A DNA stretch of 64,000 bases from NCBI RefSeq assembly GCF_000027125.1, contig NC_017626.1; one strand, given 5' to 3'. The notes below the pieces were generated by a model, which saw only the letters and a list, made by a program, of their open reading frames with translations, was not told the DNA's origin and did no database searches. Source of the DNA: Escherichia coli 042. GTDB lineage: Bacteria; Pseudomonadota; Gammaproteobacteria; Enterobacterales; Enterobacteriaceae. Below, piece by piece: positions 16,781 through 63,414 of the stretch. Each line of letters begins with the position of its first letter. Positions within the stretch are counted from its first letter, which is position 1. A program made the translations under genes and the position numbers.

Positions 16781-16926
16781 TGGCAAACGCAAAACTGCCT
16801 GATGCGCTACGCTTATCAGGCCTACATGAACTCTGCAATATATTGAATTTGCATGCTTTTGTAGGCCGGATAAGGCGTTTGCGCCGCATCCGGCATTTCA
16901 CAACAAGCACTTGTCAGCAATTTGAG
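16781..16926. repeat. BIME (pair of inverted REP elements) between rhlE and ybiA
   Basis: gcctgatgcgctacgcttatcaggcctac and gtaggccggataaggcgtttgcgccgcatccggcat; near-copy of the element at 42021-42164. Confidence 0.65.
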
Positions 16927-56315: not shown

Positions 56316-57227
56316 ATGCGACTATTTAACTGGCGACGTCAGGCGGTGTTAAACGCCATGCCACTGGTCAAACCTGACCAGGTACGTACACCGTGGCATG
56401 AATTCTGGCGACGATTTCGCCGTCAGCATATGGCGATGACCGCCGCATTGTTCGTTATTTTATTGATTGTGGTGGCTATTTTTGCACGCTGGATCGCTCC
56501 CTATGACGCCGAAAATTATTTTGATTATGACAATCTGAATAACGGACCTTCTTTGCAGCACTGGTTTGGCGTTGATTCACTGGGGCGTGACATTTTCAGC
56601 CGTGTCCTGGTTGGTGCACAAATCTCGCTGGCGGCGGGCGTGTTTGCCGTGTTTATCGGTGCGGCGATCGGGACGTTGCTGGGCTTGTTGGCTGGATATT
56701 ATGAAGGCTGGTGGGATCGGCTGATCATGCGCATTTGCGATGTGCTGTTTGCCTTCCCTGGTATTTTACTGGCGATCGCTGTTGTTGCGGTGTTGGGAAG
56801 CGGCATTGCTAACGTGATTATTGCAGTCGCCATTTTTTCCATCCCCGCGTTTGCCCGACTGGTGCGCGGCAACACGCTGGTGTTGAAACAGCAAACTTTT
56901 ATTGAATCGGCGCGCAGTATTGGTGCCAGCGACATGACCATCTTATTGCGCCATATCTTGCCCGGGACTGTCTCGTCTATCGTGGTGTTTTTCACCATGC
57001 GCATCGGTACCTCGATTATCTCTGCCGCCAGCCTGTCATTTCTCGGCCTCGGTGCGCAGCCGCCGACACCAGAGTGGGGAGCAATGCTCAATGAGGCACG
57101 AGCGGATATGGTTATCGCGCCGCATGTCGCTATTTTTCCGGCCCTGGCTATTTTTCTGACTGTACTGGCGTTCAATTTGTTGGGTGATGGTTTACGCGAT
57201 GCGCTGGATCCGAAAATTAAAGGATAG
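56316..57227 (+). CDS. gsiD: Glutathione ABC transporter permease GsiD
   Basis: 303 aa polytopic permease. Confidence 0.95.
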
Positions 57228-57404
57228 TTACGTTTGAATATTGCTTGAAAGGGTAATCACCTCACAGGAAATTATTGCCCTAAGCAAGTGTTGTAACTTT
57301 CTGCTGATTTTGTAGAATCGGGTAATTTGGTTAAAAAGCCGCAGCAAGGGACAATTTTTGCAGCGGTACAGCGTTCAGATAGTTATTTTGTTAAATGTAT
57401 TAAC

Positions 57405-59753
57405 ATGCTGAGTTTATACGAAAAGATAAAGATAAGGCTGATAATTTTATTTTTATTGGCAGCACTGTCATTTATTGGTCTTTTTTTCATCATTAACTAT
57501 CAACTGGTATCGGAGCGCGCGGTAAAACGTGCCGATAGCCGCTTTGAACTTATTCAGAAAAACGTTGGCTATTTCTTTAAAGATATTGAACGTTCGGCCC
57601 TGACATTAAAGGACTCACTGTATTTATTAAAAAATACAGAGGAGATTCAACGCGCCGTGATTCTTAAAATGGAAATGATGCCATTTTTAGACTCGGTGGG
57701 ACTGGTACTTGATGATAATAAATATTATCTCTTTTCGCGGAGGGCGAATGATAAAATCGTAGTTTATCATCAGGAACAAGTAAATGGACCGCTTGTCGAC
57801 GAGTCAGGGCGGGTTATTTTTGCCGATTTTAACCCATCGAAACGACCGTGGTCGGTGGCTTCAGATGACTCTAACAACAGCTGGAATCCGGCATACAATT
57901 GCTTTGATCGTCCGGGTAAAAAATGTATCTCTTTTACGCTACACATCAACGGCAAAGATCACGATTTGTTAGCGGTGGATAAAATTCATGTCGATTTAAA
58001 CTGGCGATATCTGAACGAGTATCTTGATCAAATCAGCGCTAATGATGAAGTTCTATTTTTGAAACAAGGCCATGAGATCATTGCCAAGAATCAACTCGCG
58101 CGTGAAAAACTGATTATTTATAATAGCGAAGGTAATTATAATATTATTGATTCTGTCGATACTGAATATATCGAAAAAACATCAGCGGTGCCAAACAACG
58201 CATTATTCGAAATCTATTTTTATTATCCTGGCGGTAATTTATTGAACGCATCAGATAAACTTTTTTATCTGCCGTTTGCTTTCATTATTATCGTATTGCT
58301 GGTGGTTTATTTAATGACCACTCGTGTGTTCCGTCGGCAATTTTCTGAAATGACAGAGCTGGTTAATACGCTGGCGTTTTTGCCTGACTCAACGGATCAA
58401 ATCGAGGCTCTGAAAATTCGCGAAGGCGATGCGAAAGAGATTATCAGCATCAAAAAATCGATCGCGGAAATGAAAGATGCCGAAATTGAACGGTCAAATA
58501 AATTGCTCTCACTGATCTCTTACGATCAGGAAAGCGGTTTTATTAAAAATATGGCGATTATTGAGTCCAACAATAATCAGTATCTGGCTGTGGGGATCAT
58601 CAAACTGTGTGGTCTGGAAGCCGTGGAAGCGGTGTTTGGTGTTGATGAACGCAATAAAACCGTCAGGAAATTGTGTCAGCGAATTGCCGAGAAATATGCG
58701 CAATGCTGCGATATCGTGACATTTAATGCCGATCTCTATTTACTTCTGTGCCGGGAAAATGTACAGACATTTACCCGTAAAATAGCGATGGTAAACGATT
58801 TTGACAGCAGCTTTGGCTACCGCAATCTGCGCATCCATAAGTCTGCCATTTGTGAACCTTTGCAGGGGGAAAACGCCTGGAGTTACGCAGAAAAACTGAA
58901 ACTGGCGATTTCCAGCATCCGTGACCATATGTTCTCAGAGTTTATTTTCTGTGATGACGCGAAACTCAACGAAATAGAAGAGAATATCTGGATTGCGCGT
59001 AATATTCGCCATGCAATGGAAATTGGCGAACTATTCCTGGTCTATCAGCCGATCGTTGATATTAACACCCGCACCATTCTGGGCGCGGAGGCGTTGTGCC
59101 GTTGGGTGTCTGCGGAGCGGGGGATCATTTCACCGCTAAAGTTCATTACCATTGCTGAAGATATCGGGTTTATCAATGAGCTGGGTTATCAGATTATTAA
59201 AATGGCAATGGGTGAATTCAGGCATTTTAGCGAGCGTGCGGTTCTGAAGGACGGTTTCTTACTGCATATTAATGTTTCGCCCTGGCAGTTAAACGAACCA
59301 CACTTTCATGAGCGTTTTACCACCATCATGAAAGAAAACGGTCTGAAGGCGAACAGCCTCTGTGTTGAGATCACTGAAACCGTGATCGAGCGAATTAATG
59401 AACATTTTTATCTCAATATTGAACAACTGCGTAAACAAGGGGTACGGATATCGATTGATGACTTTGGCACCGGTTTGTCAAACCTGAAACGTTTTTATGA
59501 AATTAATCCAGATAGCATAAAAGTGGACTCGCAATTTACCGGCGATATTTTCGGTACTGCGGGAAAAATTGTGCGCATTATTTTCGATCTGGCACGCTAT
59601 AACCGGATTCCGGTGATTGCGGAAGGCGTAGAGAGCGAAGATGTTGCGCGCGAATTAATCAAATTAGGATGTGTTCAGGCTCAGGGGTATCTGTACCAGA
59701 AACCCATGCCATTCTCCGCCTGGGATAAAAGTGGAAAATTAGTAAAAGAGTAG
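57405..59753 (+). CDS. pdeI: c-di-GMP phosphodiesterase PdeI (YliE; membrane-anchored EAL domain)
   Basis: 782 aa from ATG 57405; N-terminal TM, C-terminal EAL motif (GAEALCRW). Confidence 0.92.
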
Positions 59754-59760
59754 TTTACGT

Positions 59761-61089
59761 ATGTCCAGAATCAATAAGTTCGTACTTACAGTCAGTCTGC
59801 TGATTTTTATCATGATTTCAGCAGTTGCCTGCGGGATCTACACTCAAATGGTAAAGGAACGGGTGTATGGCCTGAAACAGTCCGTTATTGATACTGCTTT
59901 TGCGGTGGCAAATATTGCTGAATATCGGCGTAGCGTGGCAATTGATCTCATCAACACGCTAAACCCCACGGAGGAACAGCTGTTGGTTGGCTTGCGCACA
60001 GCTTACGCCGACTCGGTTTCACCCTCTTATTTGTACGATGTCGGTCCTTATCTGATTTCCAGTGACGAATGTATTCAGGTAAAGGAGTTCGAGAAAAATT
60101 ATTGTGCAGATATTATGCAGGTTGTGAAGTATCGACATGTCAAAAATACAGGGTTTATCTCTTTTGACGGTAAAACTTTCGTCTATTACCTCTATCCGGT
60201 AACTCACAATCGCAGTCTGATATTTTTGCTTGGTCTGGAGCGTTTTTCTTTACTGTCAAAATCGCTGGCGATGGATAGCGAGAACCTGATGTTCTCTCTG
60301 TTTAAGAACGGTAAACCGGTGACCGGTGATGAATATAATGCTAAAAACGCCATCTTCACCGTTTCGGAAGCGATGGAGCACTTCTCCTATTTGCCGACCG
60401 GATTGTACGTATTTGCGTATAAAAAAGATGTTTATTTGCGGGTTTGTACGTTGATTATTTTCTTTGCCGCATTGGTGGCAGTGATATCGGGTGCCAGTTG
60501 CCTCTATCTGGTACGCAGAGTGATTAATCGTGGTATTGTGGAGAAAGAAGCCATTATTAATAACCATTTTGAACGCGTACTAGATGGCGGGCTTTTCTTT
60601 TCGGCTGCCGATGTCAAAAAACTCTACAGTATGTATAACTCGGCGTTCCTGGACGACCTGACTAAAGCGATGGGCAGAAAATCCTTTGACGAAGATTTAA
60701 AAGCGCTACCGGAAAAAGGTGGTTATTTGTGCCTGTTTGACGTCGATAAATTCAAAAACATCAACGACACCTTCGGTCATTTGCTGGGCGATGAAGTGTT
60801 GATGAAAGTGGTGAAAATCCTTAAATCACAGATCCCGGTAGATAAAGGTAAAGTCTACCGCTTCGGCGGTGACGAATTTGCGGTGATTTATACGGGTGGA
60901 ACGCTGGAAGAGTTGCTATCGATTCTAAAAGAAATCGTTCATTTCCAGGTGGGAAGCATTAATTTAAGCACCAGTATCGGTGTAGCGCATTCAAATGAAT
61001 GTACTACCGTCGAACGCTTGAAAATGCTGGCGGATGAGCGGCTGTATAAGAGTAAGAAAAACGGCAGGGCGCAGATTAGCTGGCAGTAG
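59761..61089 (+). CDS. dgcI: Diguanylate cyclase DgcI (YliF; GGDEF domain)
   Basis: 442 aa; RFGGDEF motif near the C-terminus. Confidence 0.93.
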
Positions 61090-61103
61090 AATTAGAATAG
61101 TGT

Positions 61104-61129
61104 TAGTACCCCTTAATCAAGGGGTACTA
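61104..61129. repeat. Perfect 11-bp-stem hairpin between dgcI and the toxin-antitoxin module
   Basis: tagtacccctt-aatc-aaggggtacta; no flanking T-run on either strand. Confidence 0.5.
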
Positions 61130-61158
61130 ATGAATGTGGTAAATCATTTGCAAACATT

Positions 61159-61488
61159 TTACTTTGCAAAAACTTCCGGTCCTTTTATTGCCAATGTATT
61201 CAAAATACGTAGTGCCGGGCCGCTCGGTTTTATTTCATTTCGTTCCCATTTCGAGACACTTTCTTTTGACATTCCCATTGTATGTGCCAGCACGGATTGT
61301 GACATGCCGTATCGGGTGCGGATGGCTTTGATCTCTTCACCCGTCATTGATTTGACTTTGGCTATACGGGCGCTGACTTCACGAGCTTTGACCATGACGG
61401 CAATGGCATCAACTTCACTATCAGACATCAGGCCCAGTGCATTCAGTTCCTTTGCATCTTCCAGCATCATTTGTAATTTATCGCTCAT
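61159..61488 (-). CDS. XRE-family helix-turn-helix antitoxin candidate (HigA-like)
   Basis: 109 aa; HTH segment MSQSVLAHTMGMSKESVSKWERNEIKP; GAGGTG RBS; overlaps the upstream toxin-like ORF by 11 nt. Confidence 0.7.
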   Translation of the reverse strand: MSDKLQMMLEDAKELNALGLMSDSEVDAIAVMVKAREVSARIAKVKSMTGEEIKAIRTRYGMSQSVLAHTMGMSKESVSKWERNEIKPSGPALRILNTLAIKGPEVFAK

Positions 61489-61864
61489 TTTTCACCTCAA
61501 TCAAAAAGCCAGTTTCGATCAAATCCTCTATTTGCTTATTGCTAAAGGCCAGAAATGCATTTGCCATTTTTTTGTAGGCCACCAGTTCATCATCTTCGAT
61601 TTCTTTGGTTCCTTTACTGCTTAGACCACTCTTGGACCAACCATCATAAAAAAACACATGATTTGCTGATTTAAAAAAGATAATTGTTCTGGCTCCACCA
61701 CTCTTTCCTTGTTGGAGGGGTAAACGTTTTTTGATGACACCGCTACCTAAATCAGCCTCCCATATGCCTTGCATCACTTCTTCAGCGGCAGCCATGAGAA
61801 CTTTATCGTGAATACCAAGTTTTTTCGTGCTTTGGCTGAATCGTCTTGCCTTATACACACCCAT
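61478..61864 (-). CDS. Type II toxin candidate, RelE/ParE superfamily (HigB/Gp49-like)
   Basis: 128 aa; AGGATGG RBS; toxin-first arrangement with a downstream HTH partner as in higBA; family assignment is from memory. Confidence 0.65.
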   Translation of the reverse strand: MGVYKARRFSQSTKKLGIHDKVLMAAAEEVMQGIWEADLGSGVIKKRLPLQQGKSGGARTIIFFKSANHVFFYDGWSKSGLSSKGTKEIEDDELVAYKKMANAFLAFSNKQIEDLIETGFLIEVKNER

Positions 61865-61879
61865 ACATCCATCCTTGTG

Positions 61880-61905
61880 GTAATGTTTACTATAGTAACC
61901 ATTAC
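61880..61905. promoter_or_regulatory. Candidate operator of the toxin-antitoxin operon
   Basis: gtaatgtttactatagtaaccattac, 24 of 26 positions palindromic, 16-40 bp upstream of the toxin start. Confidence 0.45.
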
Positions 61906-62088
61906 GCTTATTTCAAGTAATTGCGATCAAAACTTTAATTTGGTGTGAAAAAGTGAGAGTTGCCTCGAGTATGATTCATTTTTCTCGATTTATACGTCAG
62001 GGGATTTTGTGCGTAAGGGTAGGACATGGGAAGGGTAGCAGAGGCAGATCGAAGAACAATATCCTTGTTAGATCTGCCTTTAGATTAA

Positions 62089-63414
62089 TTAAACCCGGCT
62101 ACCCCACAAATCGTACTCATCGGCGTGCTCGACTTTCACACGCAGGATATCACCTGGCTTAACGTTGGTTTCACCATTGAGATAAACCGCGCCGTCGATT
62201 TCCGGTGCATCTGCCATGCTGCGACCAATCGCGCCTTCTTCGTCCACTTCGTCGATAATCACCAGAATTTCACGGCCCACTTTCTCTTGCAGGCGCTCGG
62301 CGGAAATCTGCTGCTGCAGCTGCATGAAACGGTTCCAGCGTTCTTCTTTCACTTCTTCCGGAACCTGGTCAGGCAGGGCATTGGCGTCCGCACCTTCAAC
62401 CGGGCTGTATTTAAAGCAGCCAACGCGATCCAGACGTGCTTCTTTCAGGAAGTCGAGTAGCATCTGGAAATCTTCTTCCGTCTCGCCAGGGAAGCCGACA
62501 ATAAAGGTTGAGCGTAAGGTCAGTTCCGGGCAGATTTCGCGCCACTGTTTGATGCGCGCCAGTTGGCGATCTACAGAACCCGGACGCTTCATCAGTTTGA
62601 GAATGCGCGGGCTGGCGTGCTGCAACGGAATGTCCAGATACGGCAGGATTTTGCCTTCTGCCATCAGTGGGATGACGTCGTCCACATGCGGATAAGGGTA
62701 AACGTAGTGCAGACGTGTCCAGATCCCCAGTTTCGATAACTGTTCGCACAGGCTGACCATGCTGGTTTTTACCGGCTCGCCGTTGTGGAAGCCAGTACGA
62801 TGTTTAACATCGACGCCATAGGCGGAAGTATCCTGCGAGATCACCAGAATCTCTTTAACGCCCGCATCAACCAGACGTTTAGCTTCACTTAACACTTCGC
62901 CGATCGGACGGCTCACCAGGTCGCCGCGCATAGACGGAATAATGCAGAAGGTGCAGCGGTGATTACAGCCTTCCGAAATTTTCAGATAGGCATAATGACG
63001 CGGCGTCAGTTTCACACCTTGTTCTGGCACCAGGCTCAGGAATGGGTTGTGTTTCGGTTTTGGCACGTAGTGATGAACGTGCTCCAGAACCTGCTCATAG
63101 CTATGAGGCCCGGTGATTTCCAGCACTTTCGGGTGGACTTCGCGGATCTGATCTTCTTTTGCCCCCAGACAACCGGTCACAATTACCTTGCCGTTTTCAT
63201 TCAACGCTTCACCAATGGCTTCCAGTGATTCTTGTACCGCGCTGTCAATAAAGCCGCAGGTGTTGACGATCACCATGTCCGCATCGTCATAGCTCGGTAC
63301 CACGTCATAACCTTCAGTGCGTAGTTCGGTGAGAATACGCTCTGAATCGACAAGGTTTTTCGGACAGCCAAGGGAAACAAAGCCGATTTTCGGCTGGGGA
63401 GTTACTTTGCTCAT
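62089..63414 (-). CDS. rimO: Ribosomal protein S12 methylthiotransferase RimO (radical SAM)
   Basis: 441 aa; CNHRCTFC radical-SAM cluster. Confidence 0.96.

Follow-up and report, generated by a model that had tools for sequence, protein, structure and literature searches.

In Escherichia coli K-12, the neighboring genes pdeI (yliE, b0833) and dgcI (yliF, b0834) lie between gsiD and rimO and encode proteins of 782 and 442 aa, respectively. Both genes are already catalogued in the c-di-GMP gene set of the species. A cyclase gene and a phosphodiesterase gene also stand side by side in the dosC-dosP (dgcO-pdeO) operon of E. coli. There, however, the gene order is opposite to that of pdeI-dgcI, and the sensors are cytoplasmic haem domains, whereas those of PdeI and DgcI are periplasmic CHASE9 and GAPES2 domains. 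On the side of the toxin-antitoxin systems, HigB2-HigA2 of Vibrio cholerae (PDB 5JAA, 8A0X), which sits in the superintegron, is the characterised member of PF06296. This family is the HigB2 family, for which ribosome-dependent mRNA degradation and a toxin-then-antitoxin gene order have been described (PMC11980606). The domain order of HigA2 and the catalytic Arg of VcHigB2 have been described as well (PMC5416850).

The locus considered here lies in a 64,000-nt window from E. coli 042 (NC_017626.1), in which a conserved pdeI-dgcI operon is very probably followed by a segment that represents an old polymorphism, carries a HigBA2-type module on the other strand, and is present in about 21% of E. 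coli. Both genes occupy the same gsiD-rimO position as in K-12, and their products have the same lengths, domains, and motifs at 99% aa identity, with seven substitutions in PdeI and three in DgcI (775/782 and 439/442 residues identical to those of a K-12-type genome). Two further differences from K-12 are the dgcI stop codon (TAG instead of TAA) and the downstream spacer, which is replaced by a 994-bp module-bearing segment. The initial annotation had described a tandem of pdeI (EAL motif) and dgcI (RFGGDEF motif) as expected at this place. This is borne out by open reading frames at the exact coordinates, by Pfam and motif matches, by the identity to K-12, and by the usual gene order gsiD-pdeI-dgcI-rimO, which is kept here. 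The RefSeq record of E. coli GN25, which is 100% identical over 60800-62400, names both genes.

The pdeI and dgcI genes

The pdeI gene (57405-59753, + strand; ORF list, Pfam, and K-12 comparison) encodes 782 aa from an ATG that lies at codon 27 in a longer frame with TTG as its start. In the 177-bp spacer between gsiD and pdeI, a promoter-like site (TTGTAA-16-TAGAAT, 57291-57318, + strand) matches the consensus at 9 of 12 positions; it is regarded as a candidate only because such sites in the region number no more than chance expects. The dgcI gene (59761-61089, + strand; 442 aa, from the same three sources) begins 7 nt after the pdeI stop codon, and from this spacing we infer that the two genes are co-transcribed. 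Further downstream, rimO (62089-63414, - strand) faces dgcI and is read in the same direction as the toxin-antitoxin operon.

PdeI is an inner-membrane protein with a periplasmic CHASE9 sensor between two TM helices. Its layout, derived from Pfam and hydropathy, comprises a TM helix (residues 7-36), the CHASE9 domain (35-150, E = 6.6e-63), a second TM helix (282-310), a degenerate GGDEF-like domain (~386-506), and an EAL domain (532-767; 58998-59705, + strand). The latter matches PF00563 with 231.2 bits (cut-off 31.3; E = 1.4e-68), and its AF2 model has a pLDDT >90 and TM scores of 0.85-0.89 to solved EAL domains. The EAL signature is complete in the motif scan (E562ALCR at 562-566, N623, E655ITE, D685D, K706, E740, and Q760) and agrees with the yliE row of a published catalytic-residue table (EALR/QRDD/TE/ENEEDKEQ; PMC3484386). 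The EAL domain, catalytically complete by its residues, is predicted to hydrolyse c-di-GMP.

DgcI is also located in the inner membrane, with a periplasmic GAPES2 sensor (26-229, E = 2.2e-142) between two TM helices (4-31 and 223-252) and a GGDEF domain at residues 295-437 (Pfam and hydropathy). This domain is recognised by PF00990 (2.9e-25; 89.3 bits, cut-off 23.8) and by TIGR00254 (91.6, cut-off 37.4). The active-site motif RFGGDEF (residues 367-373; 60859-60879, + strand) was found in the motif scan; the GG(D/E)EF active site is thereby intact, and the substrate/metal residues D..N..D are present at 327-336. Diguanylate cyclases commonly, although not obligatorily, contain an RxxD allosteric inhibition site (I-site). 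In the translation of DgcI this site is missing, as VDKG stands five residues upstream of RFGGDEF, and the yliF row of the table (KNDHDRGGDEF) likewise has GE instead of DR at the I-site (PMC3484386). The GGDEF domain of DgcI, whose active site is intact and which lacks a site for product inhibition, is predicted to synthesise c-di-GMP.

The toxin-antitoxin module

A toxin-antitoxin pair had been placed directly downstream of dgcI on the opposite strand, and it is indeed found there, with the antitoxin gene at 61159-61488 and the toxin gene at 61478-61864 (both - strand). As judged from its sequence, the pair is a HigB2/HigA2-type (PF06296) type II toxin-antitoxin module. The toxin (128 aa) belongs to the HigB2 family of the RelE/ParE superfamily and scores 112.2 bits against PF06296 (Pfam cut-off 27). 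Its gene lies upstream of the antitoxin gene with an 11-nt overlap, in the same toxin-first order as in V. cholerae. The profile match to HigB-2 (2.7e-5) spans the GG.R strand with the catalytic Arg, and the residues K45, K46, R47, G53, K54, G56, G57, and R59 are invariant in the alignment. The AF2 model of the toxin (pLDDT 86) is closest to HigB2 of V. cholerae (TM 0.5-0.6), and HigB2 chains take the top 8 places among the Foldseek matches (first 7 with TM 0.46-0.60 and prob 1.0; E 3e-4). The differences from V. cholerae HigB2 are nevertheless considerable: the identity in the structural alignment is only 13-17%, the toxin here has ~18 more residues and two helices at its C-terminus, and the module stands at a fixed chromosomal junction, unlike V. 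cholerae HigB2-HigA2. By its family, the toxin would be an mRNA endonuclease that depends on the ribosome. In some E. coli, a 72-bp in-frame deletion yields a 104-aa toxin allele without the conserved GG.R core; it is bounded by two 9-bp direct repeats (ACCACTCTT, 61625-61705).

The HigA2-like antitoxin (109 aa) consists of an N-terminal segment followed by a C-terminal HTH. It matches HTH_3 (37.8 bits, Pfam) and, among PDB sequences, P22 C2 (9e-6) and V. cholerae HigA-2 (5jaa_A, 5.7e-4); the identical protein (WP_001280945.1) occurs in 5 strains. The N-terminal segment would be the neutralising part of this antitoxin. Upstream of the toxin gene, a promoter is predicted at 61880-61916 (- strand), with a -35 element TTGAAA (61916-61911) and a -10 element TATAGT (61894-61889), which together match the consensus at 10 of 12 positions and form the best site in the region. 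A 26-bp palindrome (61880-61905) covers the -10 element and is probably an operator for the antitoxin; the palindrome and the -35 element are kept in Kluyvera, in the Enterobacteriaceae genome UBA5654, and in the Escherichia-like contig L089. The operon would thus be self-contained and autoregulated through a promoter with a palindromic operator, with a hairpin at either end.

The toxin matches none of the anti-phage defence models of PADLOC, and the antitoxin has only generic HTH matches there. In RefSeq, more than 1000 genomes already have the toxin-antitoxin pair annotated, and our literature search found no paper on the module locus of E. coli.

Extent and frequency of the module-bearing segment

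The initial annotation had called the module variable, and its presence or absence is in fact polymorphic. The 994-bp segment (61090-62083; GC 0.41), whose boundaries were set by comparison with the K-12 type, was found in no fewer than 1128 (21%) of the 5426 complete E. coli genomes surveyed, compared to 4283 with the 46-bp K-12-type junction and 14 with another one. The number of carriers ranged from 1128 to 1135 depending on the query (1131-1135 with shorter queries). The segment does not interrupt the 42-bp spacer of K-12 but replaces it; the left boundary falls on the last base of the stop codon of dgcI, and the right one exactly at the rimO stop. The same boundaries and the TAG stop codon of dgcI recur in every module-bearing sequence examined. 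The segment holds the two toxin-antitoxin genes only and occurs as one copy per genome.

Each end of the segment contains a hairpin. The left one (61103-61130), in which 12 uninterrupted base pairs close a 4-nt loop, stands in the 69-bp gap between the dgcI and antitoxin stop codons and occupies the place of K-12's own spacer hairpin, while being itself part of the module-bearing segment. It is present as a single copy, folds in context with -24.4 kcal/mol on the + strand (z -4.9) and -17.7 kcal/mol on the - strand (z -3.5), and recurs, with one T/G change at the stem top, in 9 other E. coli sequences that carry the module. No U-tract follows it in either direction (the tail is UGAAUGUGG on the + strand and CACUAUUCUAAUUC on the - strand), and the terminator scan lists it on neither strand. 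Because the U-tract is missing on the dgcI strand, the hairpin is not a canonical terminator; it may be a two-way transcript-end structure, at which both convergent transcripts would probably end, and some read-through from dgcI may still occur. This conserved hairpin had been overlooked in the initial annotation. The right hairpin (62042-62079), an imperfect but conserved one beside the rimO stop with 15-nt arms of 87% complementarity, likewise stands at the place of the K-12 spacer hairpin. Homology between these two was considered, but the MAFFT alignment was forced and was not relied on. A search of 57000-62400 for known RNA families gave none at E<=1.

Origin of the segment

The reading we favour for the segment is that of a long-standing polymorphism, with presence or absence in the gsiD-rimO interval. 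That the module was "inserted", as the initial annotation put it, is not established: the spacer is replaced, the repeat search found neither terminal repeats nor a target-site duplication at 61090/62083, the diversity of the segment is core-like, and there are syntenic orthologues in Kluyvera and UBA5654, while E. fergusonii is without the module. Known types of mobile element (IS, transposon, integron cassette, and prophage) were rejected for lack of terminal repeats, of a recombinase, and of copies elsewhere. A phage origin was rejected as the segment has no phage match at all, and a plasmid origin as the only relatives found, on Morganellaceae plasmids, reach 64-70% at the nucleotide level. 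Three near-identical "plasmid" matches are records of 0.73-4.9 Mb, which were taken as chromosome filed as plasmid. The segment therefore does not look like a recent mobile-element insertion. In other module-bearing E. coli, the segment diverges from that of the window by ~1.4-1.6%, dgcI by 1.4-2.1%, and rimO by 0.8-1.1%; since the segment is as diverse as core genes are, any insertion must date back about as far as the species itself. No fixed differences between carriers and non-carriers were found in the flanks, and homologous recombination in these flanks would exchange the segment between strains.

Next to gsiD, Kluyvera sichuanensis, K. georgiana, and UBA5654 have orthologous modules in syntenic position, with 68-78% aa identity. 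These modules share the 11-nt-type gene overlap, the promoter, and the palindromic operator, as well as the orientation to gsiD and, where rimO was seen (UBA5654 only), to rimO. These genomes lack pdeI-dgcI, so that the antitoxin gene faces gsiD across 48-66 bp. They differ from the arrangement here in that other genes lie between the toxin gene and rimO and that the flanking hairpins are unrelated in sequence.

The main alternative to an old polymorphism is that an early E. coli with a K-12-type dgcI-rimO junction acquired the module late, by insertion. The donor would be a related enterobacterium with the module beside rimO; homology in rimO would have anchored one end, and the other end would have been attached at the dgcI stop by illegitimate joining. 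The two boundaries agree with such an event, as do the different rimO-proximal hairpin that the segment brings and the gene order in UBA5654 (rimO, one extra ORF, toxin, antitoxin). The module is moreover missing from 79% of E. coli. It is also missing from E. fergusonii, the only other Escherichia species with a readable junction, where gsiD-pdeI-dgcI-rimO is found and the spacer is a 40-bp hairpin sequence; on grounds of simple parsimony, its absence there speaks for a gain within E. coli. However, the closest donor found has only 74-80% aa identity, and neither rimO nor dgcI shows a tract of raised divergence or fixed differences beside the segment. We consider a late insertion conceivable but somewhat doubtful, and an old polymorphism, possibly lost in most lineages, fits as well.

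In the contig L089, 48 bp left over from the 3' end of dgcI lie between the module and rimO, on the side of the toxin gene; neither a simple "ancestral" nor a simple "inserted" history explains this remnant. A remnant of this kind was sought in the window and rejected (alignment score 14, compared to a shuffled mean of 14.35 +/- 2.0). An exact-protein look-up with the HEAT-repeat ORF and a metagenome scan with the operator sequence gave no longer contig with the L089 arrangement, and the degenerate operator pattern retrieved three E. coli-type contigs only.

Direction of the c-di-GMP effect and coupling to the module

The designation of PdeI as an EAL phosphodiesterase is sound as far as the sequence goes, but it passes over the degenerate GGDEF-like domain and the report that PdeI raises c-di-GMP. 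Overexpression of PdeI led to an 11-fold rise, which conflicts with a plain phosphodiesterase role; PdeI and c-di-GMP levels correlate positively in single cells, and the mutation G412S in the divergent GGDEF region abolishes the effect (PMC11651652). G412 is present in PdeI here, and I419T, one of the seven substitutions relative to K-12, lies seven residues from it. These observations could mean that PdeI in practice raises c-di-GMP and that the pair consists of two cyclases instead of an opposing phosphodiesterase and cyclase. The middle domain (58560-58922, + strand; AF2 and Foldseek) is modeled in the order b-a-a-b-b-a-b-a with a pLDDT of only 57-73. Foldseek aligns 390-460 columns of PdeI with the tandem GGDEF-EAL structures DosP, PA0575, MorA, and LapD, with DosP being the top match of the cytoplasmic part across both the GGDEF-like and the EAL domain. 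Fold comparison, as the sole pointer, suggests a GGDEF-like fold without the catalytic motif. TFNADLY stands in the hairpin where GGDEF normally sits, and the motif scan found GG[DE]EF nowhere in PdeI. The middle domain has no GGDEF match in Pfam even at E<=10, no detectable sequence similarity to the GGDEF domain of DgcI, and only 29 relatives among the 1.84 billion representatives searched with phmmer; at the sequence level, neither Pfam nor BLASTP nor phmmer detected a GGDEF domain there. As every catalytic residue of the EAL domain is intact (motif scan and table in PMC3484386), a pair of two cyclases appears unlikely. With no GGDEF motif and an intact EAL domain, the reported c-di-GMP rise is more likely indirect, for example via a partner cyclase.

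The convergent geometry noted initially is correct in that transcription past the dgcI stop would run antisense to the module, with the 3' end of the antitoxin gene reached first. It has to be asked whether dgcI is coupled to the module, with polymerases that read through the U-less hairpin on induction of pdeI-dgcI colliding with those of the operon or making antisense RNA to the distal antitoxin part and so shifting the toxin:antitoxin ratio. The gap of only 69 bp, the position of the antitoxin gene as the distal gene of its operon and the nearest one to dgcI, the + strand without a canonical terminator, and the induction of pdeI and dgcI at 37 C in CFT073 (PMC12890032) are in line with this idea. 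In K-12, on the contrary, DgcI was reported as undetectable and barely expressed (PMC5635695), which suggests little read-through there; a stable, conserved hairpin lies in the gap, and 79% of strains do without the module. In other genera, the module is convergent with the unrelated gsiD, with an own hairpin in each case, and the arrangement is therefore generic and not specific to dgcI. Taken together, we judge a coupling of this kind to be improbable. Its extended form is a very long shot: induction of pdeI-dgcI (at body temperature or in a surface-attached biofilm) would cause read-through of the U-less hairpin and lower the antitoxin relative to the toxin. Through transcriptional interference, c-di-GMP sensing would then be tied, in ~21% of E. 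coli, to an mRNA endonuclease that arrests growth. PdeI-high cells have been reported to be enriched for persisters, in work done in MG1655 (PMC11651652). As MG1655 is a K-12 strain and K-12-type genomes are without the module, the association of PdeI with persisters described there cannot depend on it.

Implications

Overall, the locus matters little and offers nothing new in kind, but it is of modest use to annotators and to those working on pdeI and dgcI. The published claim of c-di-GMP synthesis by PdeI probably describes an indirect effect. The dgcI-rimO junction of E. coli exists in two main forms (79% and 21%), of which the module-bearing one is best seen as old and not as a mobile-element insertion. 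For this module, which is an uncharacterised locus of E. coli O157:H7 and HS, the membership in HigB2/HigA2, as read from its sequence, would provide a concrete and testable mechanism.

The pdeI-dgcI gene pair

The phosphodiesterase gene pdeI (yliE; 57405-59753, + strand, 782 aa) and the cyclase gene dgcI (yliF; 59761-61089, + strand, 442 aa) follow each other on the same strand, with dgcI starting 7 nt past the pdeI stop; the pdeI ATG is the 27th codon of an extended frame that opens with TTG. This tandem pair had been named in the initial annotation as known EAL and GGDEF genes expected here, and both points stand, as the open reading frames have exactly the coordinates it gave, Pfam matches both domains, and gsiB, gsiC, and gsiD upstream as well as rimO and bssR downstream form the usual E. 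coli map. The genes are thus the already known yliE and yliF at their expected place. Their products share 775/782 (PdeI) and 439/442 (DgcI) residues with their counterparts in a K-12-type genome, and DNA of E. coli GN25, where RefSeq labels the genes pdeI and dgcI, is 100% identical across 60800-62400. The low GC content of the pair (0.42-0.44 vs 0.53 in the flanks) suggests that these two genes may have been acquired as well.

Some variants of the region were also observed. In E. coli NCCP12480 (NZ_CP068680.1), a deletion fuses the dgcI stop region to ybjM, whereby rimO through the genes preceding ybjM are lost, and the annotation lists pdeI as a pseudogene containing an internal stop. Among metagenome E. 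coli-type contigs (L107-L109), one dgcI allele of 406-408 aa carries an internal deletion, which might be an assembly error. The sole Rfam match above gathering in the 64-kb window is the sRNA ES036 (CssrF; 16818-16860, - strand; 41.5 bits vs gathering 37.6).

Domain architecture and the middle domain of PdeI

Pfam finds a CHASE9 (6.6e-63) and an EAL domain (1.4e-68) in PdeI, and a GAPES2 (2.2e-142) and a GGDEF domain (2.9e-25) in DgcI. Hydropathy indicates two transmembrane segments per protein (PdeI 7-36 and 282-310; DgcI 4-31 and 223-252), which flank the sensor domain on both sides and thereby place it in the periplasm. All EAL signature residues are present in PdeI (E562ALCR, N623, E655ITE, D685D, K706, E740, and Q760), in agreement with the published yliE residue table (PMC3484386). 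DgcI has RFGGDEF at 367-373 and a ten-residue stretch at 327-336, and lacks the RxxD inhibition site, the corresponding residues being VDKG, which fits the yliF table of the same study (PMC3484386).

The middle domain of PdeI (residues about 386-506; window 58560-58922), which separates the second membrane helix from the EAL domain, has no Pfam match even at E<=10 and no BLASTP similarity to the GGDEF domain of DgcI. Of 1.84 billion representative proteins, only 29 are related to it, and almost all of these are fragments of PdeI. In an AlphaFold2 model of residues 311-782, the EAL domain is confident and the middle region moderate (pLDDT 57-73), the latter following the order beta-alpha-alpha-beta-beta-alpha-beta-alpha of a GGDEF domain. 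Foldseek aligned this model over 390-460 columns with the tandem GGDEF-EAL structures DosP, PA0575 (TM 0.62/0.68), MorA, and LapD, and TFNADLY occupies the hairpin where GGDEF would be expected. Based on this model, the middle region can be read as a degenerate GGDEF-like domain.

PdeI overexpression was reported in 2024 to raise c-di-GMP 11-fold, a rise abolished by G412S in the middle domain (PMC11651652). G412 is kept here, with an I419T substitution seven residues away. Since the middle domain has no catalytic motif, c-di-GMP synthesis by PdeI itself is unlikely, and an indirect route appears to be the better reading.

The convergent toxin-antitoxin module

Downstream of dgcI, a toxin ORF (61864-61478, - strand; 128 aa; PF06296, 2.3e-32) and an antitoxin ORF (61488-61159, - strand; 109 aa; C-terminal HTH_3 helix-turn-helix) share 11 nt. 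The toxin alone gave no single-sequence PDB match; a 24-sequence toxin profile matches Vibrio cholerae HigB-2 (2.7e-5) over a strand with a conserved GG.R. The top eight Foldseek hits of its AlphaFold2 model (pLDDT 86) are HigB2 chains, the first seven with TM 0.46-0.60 and probability 1.0, and the antitoxin matches HigA-2 (5.7e-4) and the P22 C2 repressor. PF06296 is the HigB2 family, characterized by ribosome-dependent mRNA degradation and a toxin-first gene order (PMC11980606), and HigA2 carries its neutralizing segment N-terminally and its HTH C-terminally (PMC5416850). We infer that this module is toxic and cleaves mRNA. The best-scoring promoter-like site of the region (TTGAAA-16-TATAGT; 61916 to 61889, - strand) is overlapped at its -10 by a 26-bp palindrome (61880-61905), which is conserved in other genera and, judged from sequence, is likely the operator.

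Some E. coli strains (L083-L085) carry a 104-aa toxin allele with a 72-bp in-frame deletion (window 61625-61705), bounded by two 9-bp direct repeats (ACCACTCTT), in which the GG.R core is lost and the antitoxin is intact. It occurs on differing flanking haplotypes, one otherwise near-identical to the window, and looks rare among complete genomes. In metagenome contigs (L107-L109; proteins P0073 and P0074), a toxin and an antitoxin each match in two pieces that overlap, as would be expected from a frameshift or possibly an assembly error. A 1.2-kb contig of a 'Collinsella sp.' MAG bin (L003, JAIJJM010000872.1) matches the dgcI-antitoxin-toxin segment of E. coli at 99-100% identity and is almost certainly a contaminant from E. 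coli.

Origin and age of the segment

Identity to K-12 breaks off at position three of the dgcI stop, which reads TAG in this strain but TAA there, and returns at ATTAATTAA, the rimO stop, so that 994 bp (61090-62083; GC 0.41) stand in place of 42 bp. The module was rightly called variable: of 5426 complete genomes of E. coli, 1128 have the module junction, 4283 the K-12 junction, and 14 neither, and the toxin core segment is found in 1135/5426 (module frequency 21%; carriers include HS and O157:H7). That it was "inserted", as the initial annotation also had it, is not established. The segment ends show neither terminal repeats nor a target duplication, no phage copies were found, and plasmid relatives are only those of Morganellaceae plasmids at 64-70% nucleotide identity. 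The boundaries are identical in all carriers examined, other carriers diverge from the window by 1.4-1.6% in the segment, 1.4-2.1% in dgcI, and 0.8-1.1% in rimO, and neither flank holds a site with a fixed difference between carriers and non-carriers. These shared boundaries, core-like divergence, and lack of fixed flank sites point to a polymorphism of roughly the same age as the lineages of the species, shuffled by recombination.

Syntenic modules also occur in other genera. Across 100,044 species genomes scanned, the closest relatives outside E. coli (68-78% aa) are those of the Enterobacteriaceae genus UBA5654 and Kluyvera sichuanensis, and K. georgiana was added from a contig look-up. All three lack pdeI-dgcI and have the module at the syntenic site, where it is convergent with gsiD; in UBA5654, rimO lies upstream of the toxin gene at a distance of 1.36 kb. 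E. fergusonii has pdeI-dgcI and lacks the module; its dgcI (L093:7001-8329) differs from window 59761-61089 at 26% of nucleotides, DgcI being only 78% identical, vs 96% between the RimO proteins of UBA5654 and E. coli. The pair either evolves very fast or has been replaced by transfer. In a short Escherichia-like contig from SRR26188678 (L089:1-1684), rimO is followed by an ORF of 237 aa with HEAT repeats, then by 48 bp left over from the dgcI 3' end (45/48 nt identical), and finally by a module whose toxin is 80% and whose antitoxin is 92% identical; the dgcI remnant lies on the toxin side, opposite to the E. coli placement. Neither a look-up of the HEAT-repeat ORF nor metagenome operator scans found a longer contig of this arrangement. 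No one simple history fits these facts together, and we conclude only that the gsiD-rimO interval has long been variable and that the module has been associated with it across genera.

Junction hairpins and possible read-through

The K-12 spacer is essentially a single hairpin (CAGGCCGG...CCGGCCTG; -20 to -23 kcal/mol). In the segment, the 69 bp that separate the dgcI stop from the antitoxin stop contain a hairpin with a perfect stem of 12 bp and a 4-nt loop (61103-61130), and an imperfect hairpin (62042-62079) adjoins the rimO stop. A different GC-rich hairpin fills the 40-bp spacer of E. fergusonii, and still others lie between gsiD and the antitoxin gene in Kluyvera and UBA5654; a hairpin between the convergent genes is therefore the rule here, though with no fixed sequence. 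All of these hairpins lack a U-run after the stem, and a terminator scan reports none of them. The one at 61103-61130 is single copy, seen only alongside the module, and kept in nine further sequences from E. coli carriers, apart from a single T/G change at the stem top.

Polymerase passing 61089 would, as first pointed out, enter the antitoxin gene antisense 70 nt further on. The stable and conserved hairpin at 61103-61130 argues for termination before that point, whereas the missing U-tract argues against clean intrinsic termination. In published data, DgcI is undetectable and dgcI barely expressed in K-12 (PMC5635695), and pdeI and dgcI both increase at 37 C in CFT073 (PMC12890032). In other genera, the convergent neighbor of the module is a gene unrelated to dgcI. 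Taken together, a specific regulatory coupling between dgcI and the module is very improbable. Overall, the region comprises known genes at their expected place and a toxin-antitoxin pair that is already annotated and belongs to a known family, a picture little changed by the details on the family, boundaries, 21% frequency, and age of the module polymorphism, on the hairpin, and on the putative degenerate GGDEF-like domain.
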